Source: a virus | Strand: one strand, 5' to 3' | Length of the DNA stretch: 35,741 bases | IMG/VR virus record: IMGVR_UViG_3300019487_000065 | Location: 1-35,741 of that record | Part shown: positions 9,613 to 35,491 of the stretch, one piece after another | How the letters are laid out: each line of letters starts with the position of its first letter | How positions within the stretch are numbered: the stretch's first letter is position 1 | Position numbers and translations under genes: made by a program | The notes under the pieces: generated by a model | The model's database searches: none | What the model was told of the DNA's origin: nothing | Seen by the model: the letters and a program-made list of their open reading frames with translations, nothing else

Positions 9613-9960
9613 ATGAGCAAGCAGGACAAGCAGGACATGTTCGGGATGGGCGATGACGAAGGTGCCGACGAGTACGTCATCATTCAGCTGATCAGCGCCG
9701 AGGGCTGGCGCGCGGTGTTCCAGGACGACAAGGGCCCCCAGCGCGTGCTCGGCCTCGCGTGTTTCGCGCTCGTCGAGATCATCCCAGACAAGCCCGAGGT
9801 CGCGCAGATTCCGCAGCGCGCGATTCGCCCGATGGTCGTCGACGAGTTCGGCGACGTCGAGGACGTCGGCTCGTTTGAGGACTTCATTTGCGTCGTGCAG
9901 CCGGGCATGGACATCCAACCGGTGGTCGCGTACGCGATCAGGAACCGCGAGACGGCGTAA
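9613..9960 (+). CDS. hypothetical acidic protein
   Basis: 115-aa ORF preceded by TTGATG-N17-TACGAA and a 12-nt leader. G/C-rich third positions. Confidence 0.6.
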   Translation: MSKQDKQDMFGMGDDEGADEYVIIQLISAEGWRAVFQDDKGPQRVLGLACFALVEIIPDKPEVAQIPQRAIRPMVVDEFGDVEDVGSFEDFICVVQPGMDIQPVVAYAIRNRETA

Positions 9961-9963
9961 TCG

Positions 9964-10806
9964 ATGGTCCTGCGCGGTCCTAGCCGCCATCTACCCGGAG
10001 TCCCACGCTCCGGGCCCACGAACACGCAGTCGCGGGCGATTCACTCGCTCGAACACATGTCGCTCGGGTGGGCGTGGCACGACGCCAAGAACGCGACGCG
10101 GCTCGCGATCGAGTTGCTGCGCTGGGGCACGCCGCCGACGAAGTGGGTCCAACCGGATGACCCCGCTGTCGCGGAATGGAACGAGCGCATGAACGCCGAG
10201 GAGCCGGTGGGTGGCGATCCCTATCGGACGCTCGGCGACCAGCGCGTGAACGTCGACATGCCCGAGGAGATCGACGCGCGCTTCGAGATCAACAACGTGT
10301 GCGTGTACCTCGGGCAGTTCAGCGACGGCATCGCGATCCAAGCACCGCCGGGTGCTGGTCGTGACGACGAGCATCCGATGACACGGCTCTACTGGTACGC
10401 CGACGTCATGAGCAAACGCATCGGGCAGGCGTGCGAGCGTGCGGCAGTCACCGCGAAGGACGGCGATCTACGCGAGCGTTGGCGCTGGATCGGCCATGCA
10501 GCGAAGGTCGCAACCAAGTTCATCCACAAGATCGCGACCGGCAACCCAGTGATCGGTTCGATCGACGGTGCCGCTGCAGGCATCCTGCGCGACATCGGTG
10601 CTGCGCTCGCGTACAGCGGCAAGCCAACCGACGAGATCGTTGGGCGGATGTTCCACTGGCGCGTGAGAGACGCGCTCAAGGGCAAGGAGCTGTCGCCCGA
10701 GCTGGAAGTGAACCTACGCCCGGCGTTCGAGGCAGCGTGGTCAGCCGGCGAGTACGAGTTCGCCTACTCGCTGCTCGCGGACCTTGATACGATCGCGACG
10801 CTATGA
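9964..10806 (+). CDS. hypothetical protein
   Basis: 280-aa ORF (alternative ATG at 10057). The C-terminus AFEAAWSAGEYEFAYSLLADL carries the helical motif of the CxxC family. ATGA junction with the next gene. Confidence 0.6.
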   Translation: MVLRGPSRHLPGVPRSGPTNTQSRAIHSLEHMSLGWAWHDAKNATRLAIELLRWGTPPTKWVQPDDPAVAEWNERMNAEEPVGGDPYRTLGDQRVNVDMPEEIDARFEINNVCVYLGQFSDGIAIQAPPGAGRDDEHPMTRLYWYADVMSKRIGQACERAAVTAKDGDLRERWRWIGHAAKVATKFIHKIATGNPVIGSIDGAAAGILRDIGAALAYSGKPTDEIVGRMFHWRVRDALKGKELSPELEVNLRPAFEAAWSAGEYEFAYSLLADLDTIATL

Positions 10807-11108
10807 ACGAGAAGCGCTTCCCGGTGATCCGGGGCCAGACGCGGCTACCGCGCGAGGTAGCAGCCACGTGGCCGCGCAGCGTGCCGTGGAGCTTCGTCGA
10901 GAAGTTTCGCGAGCGCGCCGAGGATAACCACAGCCAGACGCTCGAAGTGCTCGCATCGCGCGGCGGGCTCGGACCCGACGAGATGTGGCTCGCGGCGCAC
11001 GACCAGCCGCTGTCGCGCTTCCGTCAGAACGTCGAGCCGCCGAGCGAACAAGCGTGCGGCGAGTGGTTGATTGCCGAGATGCGCAAGCTCGGGGAAGGAC
11101 CGTCATGA
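10803..11108 (+). CDS. hypothetical protein
   Basis: 101-aa ORF with ATGA overlaps on both sides. Confidence 0.6.
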   Translation: MNEKRFPVIRGQTRLPREVAATWPRSVPWSFVEKFRERAEDNHSQTLEVLASRGGLGPDEMWLAAHDQPLSRFRQNVEPPSEQACGEWLIAEMRKLGEGPS

Positions 11109-23785: not shown

Positions 23786-23859
<74 letters not shown>

Positions 23860-23942
23860 AAAAAGGAAGCCCCTAGGTGTGGGCTAGACAGCTGTGAGGC
23901 TGTGTCGCTTGGACTTCGGGGCATAATGAAACCGTCGAGTGT

Positions 23943-24035
23943 TACGCGCTTGTTGTGAATGCAGTGGTTTATGAGACCACAACCTTCTCCTTATCAGGGA
24001 GATGCTCTCCAATTGAGCTATGCGTGTTAGCGCGC
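23943..24035 (-). ncRNA. 93-nt aberrant tRNA-like RNA (GAT anticodon-type arm plus a second CAT anticodon-type hairpin in place of a T arm)
   Basis: The outer stem GCGCGCT/AGCGCGT has 7 pairs, one of them G.U. The D arm TAGCTCAATTGGAGAGCA is canonical. The arms are TCTCC-CTGATAA-GGAGA and then GTGGT-CTCATAA-ACCAC. The inner acceptor pairs at only 4 of 7 positions. Confidence 0.4.
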
Positions 24036-24051
24036 AAACGGTGACGGCTTC

Positions 24052-24185
24052 GGTGGGGATTTGAGGAGTCGAACCTCTGGCTTGTAAACAATCGACTGGT
24101 GGCGCGGTCTTGAGGGCGCGCCGAGTGCCGCTGTTGGTTGTGCTTGATCCGTATTCAAGTGCCGGACCGCCCGGCGTCAATCCCC
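24052..24185 (-). tRNA. 134-nt tRNA-Arg(ACG)-like gene with a 64-nt insertion in the variable region
   Basis: The acceptor GGGGATT/AATCCCC pairs 7/7. The D arm is GCCG-GGCGGTC-CGGC and the anticodon arm is CTTGA-ATACGGA-TCAAG. The T arm is AGAGG-TTCGACT-CCTCA. The 3' end reads ACC. 64 nt separate the anticodon stem from the T stem. Confidence 0.5.
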
Positions 24186-24220
24186 AGAATCTTCAGTTGT
24201 CAGAACAGCAATTCGTAGCG

Positions 24221-24348
24221 TGGCGCAGGATGTTGGAATCGAACCAACCAGCGTGTACACAGTAGCGCGGTGCTGCCGGAGCAGCGAGTGGGTACGGTGG
24301 AGATACTTTCCGGGTAAGGGAAGCGGACGCCCAGCGTCCTTATCCTGC
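24221..24348 (-). tRNA. 128-nt tRNA-like gene (TAC in the anticodon position) with a 58-nt insertion in the variable region and encoded CCA
   Basis: The acceptor GCAGGAT/ATCCTGC pairs 7/7, followed by G-CCA. The D arm is GGAC-GCTGGGC-GTCC. The anticodon-type arm is CTTCC-CTTACCC-GGAAA, with 4 pairs plus a C.A mismatch. The T arm GTTGG-TTCGATT-CCAAC is canonical. Confidence 0.5.
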
Positions 24349-24457
24349 GTGATAACTGATCACCGAGTGCGTCGCGCTGGTTCTTTCCAGATGGTAGGAA
24401 GGTGCTCTTTGCAGAGCGGCTTGTAAGCGCGTCGCTGGTGGTGACCAGCTGATGAGC

Positions 24458-24486
24458 ACCCTAGCGAGCGGTGTTCTCGATGTCAA
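24458..24486 (-). promoter_or_regulatory. candidate promoter TTGACA-N17-TAGGGT driving the RNA operon
   Basis: On the minus strand the -35 TTGACA is at 24486-24481 and the -10 TAGGGT at 24463-24458, with a 17-nt spacer ending CGC as in the other two predicted promoters. Confidence 0.45.
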
Positions 24487-25165: not shown

Positions 25166-25741
25166 CTACACCGCAACGATGTTCGTAGGCGCGATCGACC
25201 AGCCGAGCTTCTTGCCGGTCTGCAGAAAAATCTGCGCCGAGCGTGCAATCAGCGCCGAGACCGTGACGATGAATGGCAGGTGCTCGCCGTCCTCGCACGT
25301 GGGCACACCCGCGGTTTCGTCATCGACGACGAAGTTCTCGTCCCAGATCACTCGACCGAACGCGCCATCAGCTGCCAACGCGCCGTGGAGCGTCGCCGGC
25401 TTGTGCTCGTTCTCGCGCGCGAACCGCTGAACCACGTGACGCGCTTCGCCGTTGTCAAGGCAGTCGATGATGAGGTCGCTGTCACGCATGAGCACGAACG
25501 CGTTGTTCAACTCCAGCTTCGCGTTGCGCACGTCGATCTTCGTCCCCCACAGGAACTGCATCGTCGCCTTGAGCGCTTCGACCTTGAGCTTGCCGCCGCC
25601 CGGCTTGCCGTGGAACTGCGACAGCATGTTCTTCGCCTCAACACGATCAAAGTCGATCACGCGCAACTCACCTGCGTTGCGCAGCAACATGGCGACGTGC
25701 GAGCCCAGTGCACCGACTCCGACGATGGTGATCTTCTTCAT
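25166..25741 (-). CDS. ThiF/MoeB/HesA-family E1-like adenylyltransferase (short form)
   Basis: ATG 25741 has GAGGAA just upstream. KKITIVGVGALGSHVAMLLRNAG (GxGxxG), VIDFDRVEAKNMLSQ and LIIDCLDNGEARHVV ... KPATLHGALAADGAFGRV follow the ThiF-family consensus. Confidence 0.75.
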   Translation of the reverse strand: MKKITIVGVGALGSHVAMLLRNAGELRVIDFDRVEAKNMLSQFHGKPGGGKLKVEALKATMQFLWGTKIDVRNAKLELNNAFVLMRDSDLIIDCLDNGEARHVVQRFARENEHKPATLHGALAADGAFGRVIWDENFVVDDETAGVPTCEDGEHLPFIVTVSALIARSAQIFLQTGKKLGWSIAPTNIVAV

Positions 25742-25775
25742 AGCTTCCTCGGGACGTTCTACAGGTTGCATTCAT

Positions 25776-27242: not shown

Positions 27243-27572
27243 TCACTCCTGGTACCACACGGCGACGAGCCGCTGATCTTCGTTCAAGTGCAGCTCGACG
27301 AGCTGACCGACCCACGGCCAGTTGTCTTCCGTGATGCCGTGCACCGACGTCGAGTGGAAGTCCATCGACTTTGTCGTGCGCATGGTCAGTTCACTGGTGA
27401 GCCGGATCTCTCGCGCGATCGACGCATGCTTCGCGATTAACGCTGCCGAGATCGCATCGACGGCGTCGTAGCCACGCTCGTCGAGCGCGTACATGAGCTT
27501 GCCCCACGAGTTCTTCCTGTCGAAGTCCCATACGACGGCGCGGCGAATACCCGACCAGCCGACCGTCGGCAC
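27243..27572 (-). CDS. hypothetical protein
   Basis: GTG 27572 shares one base with the NUDIX stop (TAGTG). ATG 27494 is the alternative. The upstream part of the track ORF overlaps the NUDIX gene. Confidence 0.5.
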   Translation of the reverse strand: MPTVGWSGIRRAVVWDFDRKNSWGKLMYALDERGYDAVDAISAALIAKHASIAREIRLTSELTMRTTKSMDFHSTSVHGITEDNWPWVGQLVELHLNEDQRLVAVWYQE

Positions 27573-28075
27573 TACAGCTCGCCGAGGGCTAGAACGGGTC
27601 GTGCGAGCGGATGGCATTGGGGGCAGGCATCGTACGTGCAACCGCTATCGCCGACGGCGTCACAGCTCGACATTGGTCGTGTCGCCTCGATGTGCTTCAC
27701 GAGCTGTGGGTAATGCCAGTAGAACGCGGGCGAGCACGGCATGCGCTGGATGGCGTACAGCGGATTGACCCAGCGCAGCTCCTGATGATCGAGTGCGCGG
27801 GGCGGCGTCGACATCGCAGCCTGCTCGATAGCGTACAGCTCGATGACGAACGAGATGTCGAGGTGCAGCATCGCCATCGAGATGAACTCGCCGACGCGCA
27901 CAACGCAGTCGCACTCCTCGCGCCACTCGCGTGCGAGCGCTTGCGACGGCGACTCGCCTGGATCGATCTTCCCGCCGGGCAGCTCCCAGAGGTCCGGTCG
28001 ATACGCAGTCTTCTTGCGCAGGCCCATCAGCACGTAGCCGTCGCGAATCAACGCCCCTGAGACAACGCGCAGCAT
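27572..28075 (-). CDS. NUDIX hydrolase (MutT-like)
   Basis: ATG 28075 lies 1 nt after the upstream stop. The Nudix box GGKIDPGESPSQALAREWREEC fits Gx5Ex7REUxEE. Confidence 0.8.
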   Translation of the reverse strand: MLRVVSGALIRDGYVLMGLRKKTAYRPDLWELPGGKIDPGESPSQALAREWREECDCVVRVGEFISMAMLHLDISFVIELYAIEQAAMSTPPRALDHQELRWVNPLYAIQRMPCSPAFYWHYPQLVKHIEATRPMSSCDAVGDSGCTYDACPQCHPLARPVLALGEL

Positions 28076-28076
28076 G

Positions 28077-28322
28077 TCAGTGCGGGCAGAGAAGCGTACC
28101 GGGTGCGCAACCGCAACCACCCTCGGCACGATTCTTCTCGGCCAGCTCCTTGAAGCTCGGTTGTGGACCGACGAAGTCGACGAACAAGCCGCGATCGAGC
28201 AGCTCGGCGCGCGTCTTGTCGACGATCTCCTGAGCGAACTCGCCAGCCCACGACTTCATCGCACTCTCGTAGACGACGTCGAGGACTTGCTGCAGGTCGC
28301 GTTGATCGCCGATCACGCTCAC
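28077..28322 (-). CDS. hypothetical 81-aa protein
   Basis: GTG 28322 forms a GTGA overlap with the stop of 28319-28639. The rest of the 168-aa track ORF is Arg-rich and overlaps that gene. Confidence 0.5.
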   Translation of the reverse strand: MSVIGDQRDLQQVLDVVYESAMKSWAGEFAQEIVDKTRAELLDRGLFVDFVGPQPSFKELAEKNRAEGGCGCAPGTLLCPH

Positions 28323-28639
28323 TCGTGAACCTGACCGCAGTTCGGGCAGCGCATGTTGCTCCAGCCGAACGCCGTCTTCGGGCGCAGCTGGATCAGGTTG
28401 TACGGACGCGCTTCCGTCGGCGGGTAGCGGTCGACGACGAAGTCGCGGAAGTCCGCGTCGCGATCGGCCGGGATGCCGGGCACGCCGCCGTTGCGCACGG
28501 CTTCGGTGACCCAGCCCTTGACGTCGTTCTCGCTCGAATCGCGGAACACCGGATCCGGTAGATCGCCGTTCTGCATCTTCCACGTGACGTTCACGCGGGC
28601 CTCGTCGTCTCGAATCACACGTACCAGTTCGTCAGCCAT
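28319..28639 (-). CDS. hypothetical protein with C-terminal CPNCG
   Basis: 106-aa ORF with AGGAGA 5 nt upstream of the ATG. A predicted promoter lies immediately upstream. Confidence 0.6.
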   Translation of the reverse strand: MADELVRVIRDDEARVNVTWKMQNGDLPDPVFRDSSENDVKGWVTEAVRNGGVPGIPADRDADFRDFVVDRYPPTEARPYNLIQLRPKTAFGWSNMRCPNCGQVHE

Positions 28640-28707: not shown

Positions 28708-29109
28708 TCAACGGTACGGAGATCCCATCTGCGATCGCTTGCGTAGCTCGGGGACCCAGATCGGGTCGGCGACACGTGACCTACCATAGACCTCGCGACC
28801 CGGCATGCTATCCATCAGCGCCTTGCGCACGAGCACGGTCAGGTCCGAGCTTGCGATCCACCAGTTGAGCGGCCGGCCGAGCGCGTTCTCGATCGCGACG
28901 AACGACGAGATGTCCTCGCGCGATGGACCGGGCAGACCGCCGCCAGGATGCGTGTGTGCGAAGCCTGAGAGCCAGCCATCACGATTCGCTTGCCACAGCA
29001 CATCCCACAGCGTGCGGCTGTCGGGCAACGCGCCGCCCGAACGACCACCCGGCTCGTGCCAGAAGATGGGCTCGTGGTGGATGCTGATGACGACACCGGT
29101 CTCGATCAT
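28708..29109 (-). CDS. JAB/MPN (JAMM) metallopeptidase
   Basis: 133 aa. HHE is followed by FAHTHPGGGLPGPSREDI, i.e. HxH ... SxxD with one extra residue in the spacer. ATGA overlap upstream. Confidence 0.75.
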   Translation of the reverse strand: MIETGVVISIHHEPIFWHEPGGRSGGALPDSRTLWDVLWQANRDGWLSGFAHTHPGGGLPGPSREDISSFVAIENALGRPLNWWIASSDLTVLVRKALMDSMPGREVYGRSRVADPIWVPELRKRSQMGSPYR

Positions 29110-29384: not shown

Positions 29385-29599
29385 GATCGCTGCTGCCTTT
29401 CTAGTTCTTCACGCATCGCCGTCGCGAAGTCTTGCGCTTCCATTGCATCGAACTTGGGGCACGTCGGCAACTCGTGAAGCAAACTGTCCGGCTGACCGTC
29501 GATGGGACTGACACCGAACGCGATGCTCAGACCGCAGAACGGGCACGGACCAAGGTCTTCGCCTTGGAGCTGCTCGTTGTCGTTCTCGGCGTCGCTCAT
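29381..29599 (-). CDS. small zinc-ribbon protein (possibly Lar-like)
   Basis: 72 aa. GPCPFCG near the N-terminus, as in Lar-family restriction-alleviation proteins. The second half-site (H...CP) is atypical, so the call is weak. Confidence 0.55.
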   Translation of the reverse strand: MSDAENDNEQLQGEDLGPCPFCGLSIAFGVSPIDGQPDSLLHELPTCPKFDAMEAQDFATAMREELERQQRS

Positions 29600-30180
29600 G
29601 TGAGTTTCCTGTCCGCGAACTTCTGCAGCAGAATCCCGTGCGCGTCGCGATTCCAGCGCGCGTCCGCGATCGCCTCGTGATGGCTTACGTCAGGCAAGAG
29701 GTCACGGAAGCGCCCGGTGAAGCCAATGAACTTCGACCAGATCTTGAGGTCGTGGACAAGCCACGGGAAGTGCTTTGGCAGGTCGATCATCTTGCCGAAC
29801 AGCTGGCAGAACAGCACCCAGTCGTAGCTCGCGTAGTACGCCCAGACCTCGATCTGCTCCTTGGGCTCGACAGTGATGAACTGCTCGATCGCGCGTGCGA
29901 TCTCGGGTCGACGCCGCCACTTGCAGTCTACGTTGTGGACATAGTCAAGTGCGCCGCGTCGCCACGTCGGATGCTCGGGGCACGTGCAAGCCGGAAGGTG
30001 CTTGAACACGTTCTCACGCAGCCAATCGTCGGCGCCGGTCGTGTCAGGCCGGCCATCGTCGCCAAGCCAATTGCTGTCGATGAAGTACAGCTCGCGGCCG
30101 TCTTCGCACACGAGCGCGATCGAGATCAGCTTGAGCTGTGTCCCGTCATCGAGAAATTCGGTGTCCAGGTAGTAGCGCAC
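29596..30180 (-). CDS. DEDDh 3'-5' exonuclease (DnaQ-like fold)
   Basis: GTG 30180 with AGGAG 6 nt upstream. The motifs are YLDTEF (Exo I), YYASYDW (Exo II) and HHEAIADARW (Exo III, Hx4D). Confidence 0.75.
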   Translation of the reverse strand: MRYYLDTEFLDDGTQLKLISIALVCEDGRELYFIDSNWLGDDGRPDTTGADDWLRENVFKHLPACTCPEHPTWRRGALDYVHNVDCKWRRRPEIARAIEQFITVEPKEQIEVWAYYASYDWVLFCQLFGKMIDLPKHFPWLVHDLKIWSKFIGFTGRFRDLLPDVSHHEAIADARWNRDAHGILLQKFADRKLT

Positions 30181-30188
30181 GTTCTCTC

Positions 30189-30620
30189 CTATTCGGGATG
30201 CTCTGCAAGCCACTTCGCGTGGCGCTCGTCGTCCCAGTAGTCGATCAGAATCAAGTGGATGCACAGGCGTGCTTCACCATCGACGATTCGCGCAGCGACC
30301 GACGGTATCGACCAGCCAACCGATGTCTTACCGAACATCGCGATGAAGTCGGGATAGACCGCGAAGCCATTCGGCAACATCACGTCGACGGAGTTGCTCG
30401 TGATGTCGATCTTACTTTCGCTGTAGATCTCCCAATAGAAACTGTTCTGCTCGACGAGCCAATCCGGGTGCGGTTTGCCCGCTGCATCGCACTCGGCTTT
30501 GAGCTGCTCGACGGCCTCGCGCTCTTCCTTGAGCCACTCAGCGTTCTCGCGTTCGAAGCGTTTGCGAACGTCGTCGCGGAACTGCTGCGCGACTTTCTCC
30601 ATCGGCCACTCAACGCTCAC
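30189..30620 (-). CDS. hypothetical protein
   Basis: GTG 30620 forms a GTGA overlap with the upstream stop. The alternatives are ATG 30602, ATG 30635 and the track start 30656. Confidence 0.55.
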   Translation of the reverse strand: MSVEWPMEKVAQQFRDDVRKRFERENAEWLKEEREAVEQLKAECDAAGKPHPDWLVEQNSFYWEIYSESKIDITSNSVDVMLPNGFAVYPDFIAMFGKTSVGWSIPSVAARIVDGEARLCIHLILIDYWDDERHAKWLAEHPE

Positions 30621-31197: not shown

Positions 31198-32145
31198 CTA
31201 GTTGACGTTGCGAAACACGACTAGCACACCGAGGTTCATTGCTTCACGTACCACAGCCGGTAGCGACTCCAGCGTGAACTTGGTGTCGCCCTTTTCGCCG
31301 GTCGCGTGGTTCACGAGGCAGATACCGGCGTCGATGATGTGCAGTCGCTCGTCACAGACGCACTCGAAGCGTCGACGTTCGAGCCGGTAACGCACGACCC
31401 ACTCGTTGCGGTTGCGCACCTTGTTCCAACTGAGCAGTTCTGCACCGCCGACCGTGAGCGCGGCACGTGCCGCCGTCTCGAAGTCGACTTTGGCCATCTC
31501 GCGACGACCCGCACCGTCACCGAGCTGCCTCACCAGATTCTGGCGTCGCTCCTCGGCGGCACGCTTAGCTTCTTCCTCGGCGCGTAGACGTTCAAGTTCA
31601 GCGCGACGACGTGCTGCTTCGATGCGTTGCCACACAGCCATCCGAAACGCTGCGTCGAGCGCGGGCGTGACGCCCTTGATGGCGTTGACGTCCGTCGCTT
31701 GGTCCTCGTACGCACGCAGGACATCTTCCTCGGGACCGAGCGGCATCTCGACCTGACGAAAGAACAGCGGACCGTCGGACGTGATGCAGCCAACACTGAC
31801 ACGCGCGAAGCGATCAACATCGTCGTTGATCAGGTTCACGCGCGGCAGTCGCTTGGCGACATCCTCGACGTTGATCACGACGCGATCGATGAAGCTCTCG
31901 GTCGCGAAGTGATCACCGACGAGGTAGCCGAAGTGCACCTGCCCAAGCGTGGCCGCTGATAGCTCTGCAGCTTCGTGCAACGTCGCCGTACGACCCTTGA
32001 GCAGCGTGAAGCTGTACCAGCCGTGTTCGGCCGGTGTGGGACCGACGAGCGTCCACTTGCGCGAGAACGATCGCAGCTCGCGACCGCCAATCCACGGCAG
32101 CACGATGCGTTCGTCGTTCTGATGCAGTAGGTCTCGCCAGCTCAT
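31198..32145 (-). CDS. hypothetical protein with central charged coiled coil, directly downstream of the vWA gene
   Basis: 315 aa. The ATG lies 3 nt after the vWA gene stop. It contains EAARRRAELERLRAEEEAKRAAEERRQ. No family recognised. Confidence 0.6.
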   Translation of the reverse strand: MSWRDLLHQNDERIVLPWIGGRELRSFSRKWTLVGPTPAEHGWYSFTLLKGRTATLHEAAELSAATLGQVHFGYLVGDHFATESFIDRVVINVEDVAKRLPRVNLINDDVDRFARVSVGCITSDGPLFFRQVEMPLGPEEDVLRAYEDQATDVNAIKGVTPALDAAFRMAVWQRIEAARRRAELERLRAEEEAKRAAEERRQNLVRQLGDGAGRREMAKVDFETAARAALTVGGAELLSWNKVRNRNEWVVRYRLERRRFECVCDERLHIIDAGICLVNHATGEKGDTKFTLESLPAVVREAMNLGVLVVFRNVN

Positions 32146-32148
32146 GTT

Positions 32149-34086
32149 TCACGCACACGCCCAAACGGGCTTCTTCAGCAGATCGGTCTTCAGGATTTGA
32201 TCAACGAGCGTCAGGCGCGGTGCCGCAACCGCTCGCACGGTGACCGGCGTCGCAGCGATCAGGGCTCGAATCGTGCGCGGGATTGCATACGTGTCCTCGA
32301 ACGTCTGCTCGTTGATCATGAAGCACGGAATACCGAGACGCTTCGCCGTCTCACGAACCGCGATGTTGTTCTCGCCGTTCTGCTGCTGATGACGGTACGC
32401 CGCTGCGCCGTTGTGCGGGACCGTCTTCACGAAGCCGAACGCCATCGGACGCAGACCCGATGCCGCGACCTGCTGATCGAACGCGTGCGCTTCCTCGTCA
32501 CCGACGAAGATGAACAGCGCGTCCTCGTCGGCCTGGGGCGGGTACTTCATCAGTTCACGCACGCCGGCACCGTAGTCGGTACCGCCACTCGCCGTGATGC
32601 CCTGGAACGCGTTCGTGACGCCGGCTGCCGATGCGTGCTTGAGCTTGACCTCACGACCCACCGTGTTGAACACGGCAATGTGCGTGCGATCGGCCGGGAA
32701 GCCCTGCAGGAACTTCGCGACGTACGTCTTCGCTGCCTCGATCGATGACTGCATCGAGCCCGAGATGTCGACGAAGAAGTAGACGCGGATGTTCTTCGCG
32801 ACTTCCTCGACGGCCTTCTTGATTGCCGTGTCAGCTGCCTCGGCGAGCTTGTCCTTCACTTCCTTGGACTGGACGTTCTTCGCGACGTTGAGCGTGCGCG
32901 AGTCCTCAGCCTTGGCGAGCGCCCTCTCCCAACGTGCCTTGATGTCGGGCACGTCGAGCAGACCCAGCTCTTCCAACGTTGGCGTTGCGATCACAAGATC
33001 ACGGTCCGAGAGCGCCTTCGCCTCGATCGCAGCTGCGACCACCGCACGCGTCAGTTGGCCCTTCGGCAGCCGACCCGTGATGGCCTTCCAGTCCGGCTTC
33101 TCGGCGACAATCCGCTCGCAGATCTGCGCCTCGGTCAGCTCGTTCCATGACTCAGCCTGCACGATGTTGATGTCCACCATCGTGCGATGACCGTCCTTGG
33201 ACTGGAGCTGCTTCCAGCGAAGCTCCTCGAAGAACTTGGGCGTGTTCGGCTTGTAGTGCACGCGGCGCGCGAGCTGGATCACCGTCTTGCGGAAACCCGC
33301 CTTGACGAGACCAGTCAGCAGCGGCGGGTTCTCCTCGCGATGACGTAGCCACTTCTCCGCGACCTCAGGCCAACGGCCAAGGAACGGGTGACGCGGCGAC
33401 ACGCCCAGGCCCATCTCGCGGTTGATCGCCGCGATCTCGGGCAGCATGAGCACCTCACGGATGCGCAGCAGGTTCTTGGCGTTCAGATCCTTGTCCTTCT
33501 TACGGATCAGCATCATCGCCTCGCCAATGTCGCGGAAGTCGTCGTCGTAGAACGCGACCTTGTCACCGTCGAGCACGGCGTCACCGCGACGCGTCTGCAC
33601 GAGCATGAACGCGGCGAGCACGACCTTGAGGTCGCGGTGGTCCTGGTTGAACGCATACGACGCCCAGCGCGCGGCGAATTCGTTGTCGAGCTTCCACACC
33701 TCGACGATTTGCTTGTACATCCACGCCGCGACCTCGGGGAAGATGCCCGCGTCGCGGTACTCGCCGATGATCGGATGGTTCGGGCTCGCGTCGGTGCGGA
33801 CGTGCTTGAGCACACCGTTCGGACCGACAGCCTCGGTGATCACACCGAGCTTCGTCTTGAGCGTCTTCTTGCCGCTCTTCGACAGCTTGTAGATGACCGT
33901 GCGCTTGGTGCCGTTGATCTCTTCGACTTTCGGCGTCACGGGTTCCCAACGCACGCCGACGTTGGTGCGCTTGTCCTCGATCACGATGCCGGGACGGCCG
34001 TGATAGAGGTGATCGGTGTAGGTAAGGACCGACGCGATGATGCGCTCGGCCGGACCCAGGTTCTCGCGATTGTTGACGTTGACCAT
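32149..34086 (-). CDS. vWA-domain protein with N-terminal TROVE-like helical module (Ro60/Rsr-like architecture)
   Basis: ATG 34086 with AAGGAG 7 nt upstream. The vWA MIDAS elements are FFVDISGSM, SGGTDYG and IFVGDEE. Upstream, GRWPEVAEKWLRH ... FRKTVIQLARRVHYKP parallels the Ro60 TROVE signature (WGRxLRxAIxxWY ... LLRLSHxKP) from memory. Confidence 0.65.
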   Translation of the reverse strand: MVNVNNRENLGPAERIIASVLTYTDHLYHGRPGIVIEDKRTNVGVRWEPVTPKVEEINGTKRTVIYKLSKSGKKTLKTKLGVITEAVGPNGVLKHVRTDASPNHPIIGEYRDAGIFPEVAAWMYKQIVEVWKLDNEFAARWASYAFNQDHRDLKVVLAAFMLVQTRRGDAVLDGDKVAFYDDDFRDIGEAMMLIRKKDKDLNAKNLLRIREVLMLPEIAAINREMGLGVSPRHPFLGRWPEVAEKWLRHREENPPLLTGLVKAGFRKTVIQLARRVHYKPNTPKFFEELRWKQLQSKDGHRTMVDINIVQAESWNELTEAQICERIVAEKPDWKAITGRLPKGQLTRAVVAAAIEAKALSDRDLVIATPTLEELGLLDVPDIKARWERALAKAEDSRTLNVAKNVQSKEVKDKLAEAADTAIKKAVEEVAKNIRVYFFVDISGSMQSSIEAAKTYVAKFLQGFPADRTHIAVFNTVGREVKLKHASAAGVTNAFQGITASGGTDYGAGVRELMKYPPQADEDALFIFVGDEEAHAFDQQVAASGLRPMAFGFVKTVPHNGAAAYRHQQQNGENNIAVRETAKRLGIPCFMINEQTFEDTYAIPRTIRALIAATPVTVRAVAAPRLTLVDQILKTDLLKKPVWACA

Positions 34087-34181: not shown

Positions 34182-34215
34182 GTGTTAGCGCCGGGTCACA
34201 AGCAAGTCAAGAGCA
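34182..34215 (-). promoter_or_regulatory. candidate promoter TGCTCTTGACT-N17-TAACAC
   Basis: On the minus strand the -35 TTGACT is at 34210-34205 and the -10-like TAACAC at 34187-34182. It includes the conserved 11-mer (34205-34215) and lies about 100 nt upstream of the vWA gene. Confidence 0.4.
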
Positions 34216-34492
34216 ACTTGCTCGCAACGCGATCTCCGACGATGTTATCGTAGGCCGTGGGGACGTCGAAGCGCGCGACACGCCGAAAGCGCCGACAACA
34301 GCGCGCCGCACAACGACATGGCCGTGCTGCAAAGCCGACCCATCGACTACGATCTGGACGCACTGGTAGCGCCCACGCAAAGAAACCGCGATCGCGTCAG
34401 CGATCTGCGCACGTAAGCATCGCGGCACAGACCATCGAGCAATCCGTGCGCTGCGCCGAGTGTGGCGCGCGCCCCGGAGAGCTACATCGCCA

Positions 34493-35491
34493 CTAACCCT
34501 CGAACGTGAAGGTCGCGATCGGGCGACTCTGATCGCCGTACGAACCGTCTGCCGCTGCACGCACACCGTACACGCGGTACGCCGCGTTCACGAACTGGTT
34601 CATGTTCTCGGGCGTGATCTCGATGTAGCGCATCGGCGTCGCCGAGTAGCCGCTCGGACCGCGTGTACCGTCTGCTGCCATTCGGAAGAGCTTGCCGTCG
34701 CGCACCACGAACAGCACGGTGTGATGCCACCAGCGCCACGTACCGTTCGCTTGCTTTGTCGACTGGCCGCAGACAAGGAACGTCGGCAGCGTCGCGACGC
34801 GATCGAGCAGCTCCCTGATGTCGATGACGTTCGAGACGCCCATGCGACGGATGCTGGAACCGTCGGGCAGGATGCGGAAGCACACGTCACCGAAGCCGCG
34901 CCACGGACTCGCACCGGGGTTCTGGTGCAACTCGGGACCCTTCTCCACCAGATCGAACAGCGACGGGATGTTGCCCGCGTGCGTGAAGTCCTGGTTGCGA
35001 CGGTTCAACCACGACAGGAAGAAGTTCGTGAACGACGTGCAGTGGAACGCCGGGTACGTGCGGTTGAGGACGTTGGGCCACTCCTTCACCGTGCCGCCGG
35101 TCTTGCCGGCGCCGTACGTGATGATGAACTTGTCGCCCTGCCACAGACCGCGTCCGGGTCCGTAGCGCACCGGCTTGCCGGTGATCGCCGTGACGAACGT
35201 CTGGAATGCGGTCCACGTCGAGCTGTTGCACGGCACGAACTCGGTCGGGGGCTGCGTCGTTTCATCGCTGGGCTTGTGCTTTGCGATGGCAGCGTCGAGC
35301 GCGCCTTGCGTCTGCGGACCCGCGATCCCGTCGTCGTCGACATCGGGACGATCGAGCTGGAACGCGAGCACGGCCGCCGTCGTCAGCTTGCCGTAGATAC
35401 CGTCGACGTCGCCGGGATCGTAGCCGCACGCCTTCAGCTTGAGCTGCAGCATCTCGACATCGGGACCCTTGTCACCTGGCTTGAGAATCAC
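34493..35491 (-). CDS. endolysin: N-terminal peptidoglycan-binding domain plus C-terminal putative Cys/His peptidase-amidase domain
   Basis: GDKGPDVEMLQLKLKACGYDPGDVDGIYGKLTTAAVLAFQ ... DGIAGPQTQGAL is a PG_binding_1-type repeat. The C-terminal domain has candidate catalytic residues FHCTSF and WWHHTVLFV (inference). Confidence 0.8.
   Translation of the reverse strand: MILKPGDKGPDVEMLQLKLKACGYDPGDVDGIYGKLTTAAVLAFQLDRPDVDDDGIAGPQTQGALDAAIAKHKPSDETTQPPTEFVPCNSSTWTAFQTFVTAITGKPVRYGPGRGLWQGDKFIITYGAGKTGGTVKEWPNVLNRTYPAFHCTSFTNFFLSWLNRRNQDFTHAGNIPSLFDLVEKGPELHQNPGASPWRGFGDVCFRILPDGSSIRRMGVSNVIDIRELLDRVATLPTFLVCGQSTKQANGTWRWWHHTVLFVVRDGKLFRMAADGTRGPSGYSATPMRYIEITPENMNQFVNAAYRVYGVRAAADGSYGDQSRPIATFTFEG

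Follow-up and report, generated by a model that had tools for sequence, protein, structure and literature searches.

Positions 31198–34086 of the viral record IMGVR_UViG_3300019487_000065 (IMG/VR), which was analysed over its whole length of 35,741 nt (the window; 62% GC), raise the question of whether phages carry a divergent form of the RNA-binding protein Ro60. A gene on the minus strand (32149–34086) encodes a 645-residue protein that ends in a von Willebrand factor A (vWA) domain, and a sequence-only reading had taken it for an orthologue of Ro60/Rsr with a co-translated partner. Orthology was not borne out. The vWA and partner genes are the first two of five genes in a conserved phage cassette that also encodes a JAB-type metallopeptidase, a ubiquitin-like protein (Ubl) and an E1-like adenylyltransferase, a context that the earlier reading had missed. 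We propose that this cassette, led by the vWA protein, acts as an E2-less ubiquitin-like or sulfur-carrier system with an RNA-linked target platform, a proposal to which we give about an even chance of being correct. The components are of known kinds, and what is new is their combination and their placement in phage tRNA arrays. The literature searched yielded no description of a phage cassette that combines vWA, Ubl, E1 and JAB proteins, and a survey of jumbo phages mentions classical ROT/TROVE proteins alone, in a small subset of phages.

The cassette emerged from clustering of every same-strand open reading frame (ORF) across 63 viral loci and the window (n=64). Besides the vWA gene itself (64), the families that recur are those of the 315-residue partner (60), a 133-residue protein (58), a ∼95-residue protein (55) and a ∼200-residue protein (48). 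The next real gene family is present at 17 of the 64 loci; two further clusters (35 and 37 loci) arise artefactually from alternative frames of the vWA gene. Of the loci from viral and cellular genomes whose downstream sequence extends to 5.5 kb or more (n=70), hidden Markov models (HMMs) detected the partner at 67, the JAB protein at 63, the Ubl at 64, the E1 at 58 and all five genes at 55. The complete cassettes are mostly on jumbo-phage contigs and usually lie within the tRNA arrays of these phages. The order is fixed as vWA protein, partner, JAB, Ubl and E1, with median gaps of 42, 284, 12 and 274 nt, and is also seen in Myxococcota-associated contigs. The five genes are contiguous in L034 (5995–10164), L030 and L052, and they abut or overlap in an operon-like manner at several loci. 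All five genes were also recovered by the HMMs in a GenBank phage, Rctr197k (L001, KX853510, 7926–17407). In that record the vWA gene is entered as a misc_feature and the partner (9731–10879) is unannotated, with a minus-strand coding sequence drawn across it.

The decisive test of functional linkage is whether the gene order is retained in a deeply divergent branch. Members that match the vWA HMM at E∼1e-123 keep the same order. Locus L079 carries a vWA-like gene (519 residues), a 264-residue partner-like gene (with a ‘DGWY’ motif, a coiled coil and ‘AGYC...F.I.SL’), a JAB gene (HVHP...S..D), a 75-residue ORF ending in ...FRGG-S and a ThiF gene, with a ribosomal protein S21 gene next. Locus L077 carries two tRNAs, a vWA-like gene, DUF5662, an RlaP nucleotidyltransferase, a partner-like gene and a JAB gene, after which the contig ends.

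These data bear on the alternative that the five genes are not functionally coupled, but are backbone genes of one phage lineage whose order is kept by descent, with the vWA protein acting alone, for example as a BatA/CoxE-type assembly or adhesion factor. All loci come from phylogenetically related phages, such that fewer independent observations underlie the co-occurrence than the counts suggest. Similarity to the VWA_CoxE family and to BatA/BatB is confined to the vWA domain, and jumbo phages and ATV are known to use vWA co-chaperones in virion assembly (PMC7824862). Variable genes also lie frequently between cassette members. In the window the cassette is interrupted by extra genes, including those for an Rv2179c-like 3′–5′ exoribonuclease (29596–30264, minus strand; PHROG ‘RNase H’, 2.3e-41) and a NUDIX hydrolase (27572–28129, minus strand); L004 and L106 carry the same two, and L106 carries a dCMP deaminase and an HNH endonuclease as well. 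Against this, nothing else is conserved in the ±6 kb flanks, the five genes hold their order and strand from 88% identity down to the branch reached by HMM only, and they abut or overlap at several loci. The VWA_CoxE score of the window protein falls just under the Pfam cutoff (25.4 versus 26.4 bits), and no AAA+ gene, MoxR ATPases included, occurs among the conserved neighbours. We regard an absence of coupling as very unlikely.

The last three genes of the cassette encode proteins that together resemble the enzymes of a ubiquitin-like pathway. The 133-residue product (28708–29109, minus strand) is a JAB/MPN-like metallopeptidase with the motif E...H-x-H-x8-S-x-x-D (FAHTHPGGGLPGPSRED), which corresponds to the JAMM/MPN+ pattern E...HxHx7Sx2D with a spacer of 8 residues instead of 7. 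This motif is conserved in 52 sequences and is present also in the distant L077 and L079, and the Pfam Prok-JAB match is sub-threshold (E=0.004). The gene for the ubiquitin-like or sulfur-carrier-like precursor (p106, 106 residues; 28319–28639, minus strand) always lies between those for JAB and ThiF. Its core ends in an invariant ...RPKT(P/A)FG, which in the window is followed by a 14-residue tail (WSNMRCPNCGQVHE). The FG is terminal in 8 of 48 sequences and has one residue after it in 18, while the rest carry a variable tail of 2–61 residues; the L079 protein ends in GG-S. A terminal Gly with such a variable extension is typical of ubiquitin-like or sulfur-carrier precursors matured by a JAB peptidase.

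The 201-residue ThiF/E1-like adenylyltransferase (25166–25771, minus strand) is recognised by Pfam ThiF (PF00899, 3.8e-21). Its nucleotide-binding and Mg motifs are conserved (GVGALGS, DFDRVE.KN and DCLDN), as is a Cys in TCEDGEH, and its best matches in the PDB are MoeB (7.5e-8), Uba4, UBA5 and MccB, with NCBIfam assigning it to ThiF/MoeB/UbaA. It is thus a MoeB/ThiF-type E1 adenylation domain, with neither an E2 nor a rhodanese domain in the protein. A Gly-ended small protein, a MoeB/ThiF-type E1, a JAMM peptidase and the lack of a recognisable E2 are features shared with the archaeal SAMP-UbaA-HvJAMM1, Thermus TtuB-TtuC-TtuD (with TtuA) and eukaryotic Urm1-Uba4 systems. These systems are tied to tRNA thiolation, which parallels the place of the cassette in tRNA arrays. 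The cassette differs from them in its F-G rather than G-G terminus (in the main branch) and the variable tail of its precursor, in a minimal 200-residue E1 domain without rhodanese, in having no TtuA/NcsA-type thiolase that could be found, and in its vWA and partner proteins, which have no counterpart there; the beta-grasp fold of the cassette Ubl is putative.

The same three genes could instead belong to a counter-defence system, in which a phage E1, JAB and Ubl related to CBASS Cap2/Cap3 or to Bil/Bub disturb ubiquitin-like immunity of the host or alter its proteins, the vWA protein and the partner serving to bind the target in the host. Ubiquitin-like defence systems are established in bacteria (PMC10097602, PMC10557695), and both type II CBASS, with Cap2 (E1-E2) and Cap3 (JAB), and Bil/Bub share with the cassette a similar E1 adenylation domain, a JAB peptidase (of the Cap3-type fold) and a setting of phage–host conflict. 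The best PADLOC match of the cassette E1 is to the E1 part of Cap2 alone (7e-19), NCBIfam lists ‘6A-MBL cap2_3’, and the phage-borne cassette is accompanied in L006 by an anti-Pycsar Apyc1 gene. However, the E1 matches ThiF, MoeB and Uba4 with about the same strength. The cassette, which is phage-encoded, contains no E2 domain or fusion, no CD-NTase and no effector. The vWA protein and the partner are absent from CBASS and Bil/Bub, and all four of the other cassette proteins are unmatched in PADLOC, as they are in PHROGs and NCBIfam. A role in counter-defence would also leave unexplained the position in tRNA arrays and the RNA-repair genes nearby, and we consider it quite unlikely.

The partner (315 residues; 31198–32145, minus strand) consists of an N-terminal domain, a coiled coil and a C-terminal domain, and its ATG lies 3 nt past the TGA of the vWA gene, as the sequence-only reading had described; the coupling it inferred agrees with the presence of the partner at nearly all of the loci tallied. 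The protein matches nothing in Pfam or the PDB. Residues C264, C276 and H280 are invariant and C262 is present in at least 90% of sequences, while the context of C276 (‘AG-x-C’) is the sole site kept in the distant branch. Three assignments were tried and set aside. A resemblance of ‘DAGICLVNH’ to the E2 motif ‘GxICLDIL’ received no support from hhalign comparisons with UBE2D2 and UBC9 or from a Pfam scan of 28 members (E≤10); a TtuA-like thiolase was rejected as the sequence contains no PP-loop motif; and a zinc site (C-x-C...C-x3-H) was weakened by the retention in the distant branch of only one of those Cys residues. That the partner is a cryptic E2-like enzyme acting through its one universally conserved Cys is speculation.

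The vWA protein itself has the architecture that had been described for it, a helical body followed by a C-terminal vWA domain with a metal-ion-dependent adhesion site (MIDAS), and the body is in addition basic. The vWA assignment is secure. The Pfam VWA_2 model matches residues 436–520 above its cutoff (E=1.3e-7; 32.6 bits versus 27), the MIDAS (DISGSM, GGTD, GDEE) is complete, and D440, S442, S444, T503 and D530 are invariant among 26 homologues, placing the protein in the superfamily with a Rossmann-like fold and a DxSxS...T...D site. An AlphaFold model of the full-length protein (pLDDT 74.5, pTM 0.46), built on a shallow alignment of 26 sequences with at least 57% identity, matches some forty vWA structures in Foldseek at E≤1e-3. 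It consists of an N-terminal helix, a beta-rich segment (residues ∼30–111; 33754–33999), a helical body (residues 112–430; 32797–33753), the vWA domain (residues 431–612, 32251–32796; 433–612 in the model) and a tail of low confidence. The beta-rich segment agrees with the extra N-terminus noted earlier relative to classical Ro60 and amounts to an insert of 80 residues, which the distant branch of the family (520–570 residues) lacks; in distant members P0480–P0508 the profile match begins at profile position ∼108–117, corresponding to their residues ∼42–71. Across the family, the insert (median isoelectric point 10.1) and the helical body (9.2) are consistently basic, and the vWA domain (6.6) is neutral.

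Whether this protein is Ro60 was investigated at the levels of sequence, profile and predicted fold. Neither of the Pfam models that define the family, TROVE (PF05731) and vWA_Ro60 (PF25045), matched in any of 36 members scanned. TROVE was absent from the window protein, from 26 members at E≤10 and from 10 distant members at E≤1, and in the window protein and its 26 relatives the generic VWA_2, VWA_CoxE and VWA models alone matched. A bridge to TROVE through distant members (P0480–P0508) failed in this way. As a positive control, a human Ro60 query, checked by Pfam (TROVE 2.9e-50, vWA_Ro60 9.9e-77), recovered proteins named ‘Ro-like RNA binding protein’ with 32–40% identity from 357 phage records, and all 120 listed relatives of one phage Ro60, which are bacterial or phage proteins, carry both Pfam domains. 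Since genuine phage Ro60 proteins are so easily recognised by both models, the 645-residue protein is not one of them. Searches of PDB sequences, with the single sequence or a 26-sequence profile, returned vWA domains alone (for example BatA and BatB), and no Ro60.

The alternative that these results address is a genuine but divergent Ro60/Rsr ribonucleoprotein (RNP), acting with Y-like or tRNA-like RNAs in surveillance or repair, with the Ubl, E1 and JAB proteins as neighbours or accessory regulators. Part of its support comes from predicted structure. The top four PDB matches of the full-length model in Foldseek are TROVE/Ro60 structures (9KOP, 1YVP chains A and B, and 9L5Y), among them the Ro60 of Thermus phage phiLo, with a best E of 3.5e-7 over ∼540 aligned columns, and yet with TM-scores of 0.26–0.35. 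When residues 1–432 were modelled separately (pLDDT 78), no Ro60 structure was matched and the best hit (E=0.087) was a generic helical repeat. In Ro60 a HEAT-like helical ring is closed by the vWA domain. The fold comparison that had been suggested as a check thus ranks Ro60 first for the whole chain, at low TM-scores, and does not recover it for the N-terminal part. Among the viral models of BFVD, helical proteins with a vWA domain lead, a phage TROVE protein ranks third, and giant-virus DUF2828 proteins appear too, all with low TM-scores. DUF2828/DUF7788 giant-virus proteins, BatA/BatB and CoxE-type proteins share the vWA fold and MIDAS with the lead protein, and DUF2828-type proteins also have a helical region before the vWA domain and score about as well as Ro60, so the architecture is not specific to Ro60. 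These proteins in turn show no sequence match outside the vWA domain, have TM-scores of 0.2–0.3, and the cassette lacks a MoxR partner.

In profile–profile comparison with shallow alignments, hhalign matched the family to TROVE with 59% probability, which rose to 94.7% (E=6.3e-8, score 70.6) when 65 family and 22 TROVE sequences were used. The match is colinear, with residues 263–532 of the query on residues 175–471 of human Ro60, and it places the second half of the helical body (residues 263–430) on the second half of the TROVE domain. The segment GFRKTVIQLARRVHYKP, in which a parallel to the TROVE signature had been seen, does align with the Ro60 signature NGWSHKDLLRLSHLKP. When the domains were compared separately, the vWA domain gave a score of 45 against that of Ro60 (89.5% probability, E=2e-6), as is expected for any two vWA domains, whereas the helical body against the TROVE helical region scored 29.4 (P=0.0065, 5.8% probability), above the non-significant scores of 12–21 obtained with reversed and cross-domain controls. 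Most of the 94.7% signal therefore comes from the vWA domain, and the helical body shows a weak, colinear, better-than-control sequence similarity to the second half of TROVE.

The resemblance to Ro60/Rsr can thus be stated as a common order of a basic helical body and a C-terminal MIDAS vWA domain, a similar size once the beta insert is removed, and a weak colinear profile match that includes a ‘GW.H.DLLRL.H.KP’-type segment. Set against these are the failure of both family-defining models, a helical part that is not independently recognisable by sequence or predicted fold, the additional insert, and a near-obligate linkage to the partner, JAB, Ubl and E1 of a kind that known Ro60 loci do not show. 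Any kinship of the vWA protein with Ro60 is at most very remote and falls short of orthology, and it is possible that its family is an evolutionary intermediate between generic helical-plus-vWA proteins and Ro60.

The genomic setting relates the cassette to tRNA. Among 59 viral loci, 47 have tRNAs within 6 kb of the vWA gene, and 589 of the 597 tRNAs concerned are on the strand of the gene and 484 are upstream of it. The nearest upstream tRNA lies within 150 nt at 13 of the 59 loci, within 300 nt at 19, within 1 kb at 30 and within 2 kb at 39, and in Rctr197k the vWA gene comes after an array of 30 tRNAs. Genes for RlaP, HAD_SAK_2 (an RNA-repair family), the Rv2179c-like exoribonuclease, ribosomal protein S21 and transfer-messenger RNA also lie in or beside cassettes. 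HNH and LAGLIDADG homing endonucleases occur in or beside the cassette and the tRNA arrays (7–13 loci each), for instance at 9719–10303 of L011, 1201–1755 of L043 and 10109–11062 of L062. Phage Ro60 proteins (that of phiLo, PDB 9KOP and 9L5Y, and the actinophage ‘Ro-like RNA binding proteins’) are phage-borne and their genes too tend to adjoin tRNA arrays.

In the window all tRNA and tRNA-like genes lie directly after the cassette, in a gene-free, non-coding cluster of ∼650 nt (23786–24486, minus strand). The sequence-only reading had reported tRNA-like RNAs on the same strand, some 8 kb past the vWA gene, and ARAGORN and Rfam place there, ∼8.1 kb away, a tRNA-Met (23786–23859, minus strand) and an aberrant tRNA-like element with a mispaired, defective acceptor stem (23956–24027, minus strand; 43.9 bits). 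The cluster is headed by a promoter-like TTGACA-N17-TAGGGT (24458–24486, minus strand) and contains two further tRNA-like units of ∼130 nt on the minus strand, one ending in GCCA (24221–24348) and one in ACCG (24051–24185), each with a 7-bp acceptor stem, a long internal insertion and a canonical T arm. The block is ∼80% identical, with long perfect runs, in the window, L106 and L004, whose proteins are 85–90% identical, and it exceeds in conservation the intergenic stretch that precedes the vWA gene. Its adjacency to the cassette suggests a possible functional link. The real association with tRNA genes and tRNA-like RNAs thus upholds that part of the earlier reading.

In phiLo, a Ro60 accompanied by upstream Yrl RNAs is established (PMC12135203), as is a tRNA-like YrlA in bacteria (PMC4201824). 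The conserved tRNA-like RNAs, together with the adjoining RNA-repair genes, count in favour of a divergent Ro60 RNP. A covariance search for Y RNAs, which had been suggested as a check, found no Rfam Y RNA family in the window at E≤1, and the downstream tRNA-like RNAs have ordinary 7-bp acceptor stems and no Ro-binding stem. Taken with the sequence, profile and fold results above, this makes a genuine Ro60 RNP somewhat unlikely.

The 406-nt gap upstream of the vWA gene, which had been read as a non-coding leader, is real, but it is composed of a hairpin, a non-conserved spacer, a promoter-like block and a 5′ untranslated region (UTR) of ∼90 nt. It is preceded by an endolysin-like gene (332 residues; 34493–35491, minus strand) with an N-terminal PG_binding_1 domain, to which the endolysin PHROG matches of the product are confined; its other ∼260 residues match no family. 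A consensus scan placed a terminator-like hairpin with a T-rich tail after this gene (34390–34405, minus strand), in the part of the gap that is specific to the window. Comparison with relatives showed that ∼220 nt of the gap are such window-specific spacer. A promoter-like block containing the near-palindrome TTGCGAGCAA (34182–34230, minus strand; −35 TTGACT at 34205–34210, a 17-nt spacer and −10 TAACAC at 34182–34187) is near invariant in the window, L002, L004 and L009 with variable flanks, and occurs once in the window, with 0 occurrences expected by chance. A generic promoter scan did not call it, and its conservation suggests that it may serve as a promoter. Between the block and the ATG lies the ∼90-nt 5′ UTR with AAGGAG. 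Because the hairpin and the conserved block lie upstream of it, the vWA gene appears to start a transcription unit. A site of similar form, TTGACA-N17-TAGGGT, is the one found at the head of the tRNA-like cluster. Both the ATG and the AAGGAG are kept in relatives and the DNA upstream of the ATG carries frame-breaking indels among them, so a longer version starting at a GTG (34161) is unlikely. A Y-like RNA or leader within the 406 nt was also entertained (fold z-score −2.2) and was dropped, as the ∼220-nt spacer is window-specific and the conserved part is promoter-like. In Microbacterium phage Big4 (L075, 504–4650), a canonical Ro60 gene likewise follows an endolysin gene and a non-coding gap of ∼415 nt. 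This has been counted with the evidence for a Ro60 RNP, and the likeness of the two arrangements may be a coincidence.

We therefore return to the proposal that the cassette is an E2-less ubiquitin-like or sulfur-carrier system with an RNA-linked platform. The JAB peptidase would cut off the variable tail of the Ubl precursor, leaving its invariant C-terminal Gly (...RPKTPFG) exposed, and the E1, from the chemistry of its family, would adenylate this Gly and may hold the Ubl on its conserved Cys. Since no E2 is recognisable, the activated Ubl would be used as in the SAMP, Urm1 and TtuB systems, for conjugation to targets and/or as a thiocarboxylate sulfur donor. The vWA protein and the partner would provide a target-recognition or acceptor platform. 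From the basic, Ro60-shaped character of the vWA protein and the tRNA-array setting beside RNA-repair genes, the platform would most likely engage tRNA, other structured RNA or the translation machinery. A more specific version, in which a Ro60-like ring captures tRNAs or tRNA-like RNAs and, with a perhaps E2-like partner, directs the Ubl to RNA-bound machinery or to tRNA thiolation, is in our view unlikely.

Several observations, besides the relatedness of the loci, weigh against this proposal. The window's closest relatives and most high-GC Myxococcota-associated contigs have no nearby tRNAs, and adjacency to tRNAs may in part reflect the shared ancestry of jumbo phages. Basic charge, weak similarity to Ro60 and gene neighbourhood are the only pointers to RNA binding by the vWA protein. 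A beta-grasp fold of the Ubl found no match in PDB profile searches and no signal in hhalign comparisons with ubiquitin, ThiS, MoaD and Urm1, and the sequence tests gave no support to an E2-like partner, all of these being tests of low power. No thiolase (TtuA/NcsA), rhodanese or E2 was found among the cassette genes and their recurrent neighbours, and some cellular-genome loci carry a four-gene variant without JAB.

The vWA family is large. More than 1709 homologues remain at 90% clustering and 589 representatives at 50%, of which 112 match at E≤1e-30, and throughout they bear the database names ‘hypothetical’ or ‘VWA domain-containing’. Among GenBank phages, megablast gave no match and tblastn found the gene in Rctr197k only, while IMG/VR contributed the 63 loci with the vWA gene, mostly on contigs of 100–619 kb. 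In cellular genome assemblies, 25 of 26 matches (L080–L105) are contigs of metagenome-assembled genomes (MAGs), for the most part with an assignment to Myxococcota (Kofleriaceae, Polyangia, Sandaracinaceae and Sorangium), and the one exception is from an isolate, Paraliomyxa miuraensis SMH-27-4 (scaffold of 799 kb). These assignments probably indicate the host clade, or phage contigs that were binned into MAGs. One distant metagenomic member (P0488) has a long insert in the vWA domain directly after DISGSM...AEC, with a weak Intein_splicing match. This looks like an intein and, if it is one, would suggest that the vWA domain is functionally important.

The cassette is thus abundant, with more than 1,700 homologues of its lead protein and an occurrence on phage contigs that reach 619 kb. 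If its five genes cooperate, phages possess, within their tRNA sets, autonomous machinery for ubiquitin-like activation that is coupled to a Ro60-shaped protein. This would join the fields of prokaryotic ubiquitin-like and sulfur-carrier proteins and of Ro60/Y-RNA surveillance, which have so far been studied apart, and would provide a testable handle on the investment of jumbo phages in large tRNA arrays. An RNP-linked Ubl system of this kind, if confirmed, would link the quality control or modification of RNA with ubiquitin-like chemistry in viruses.

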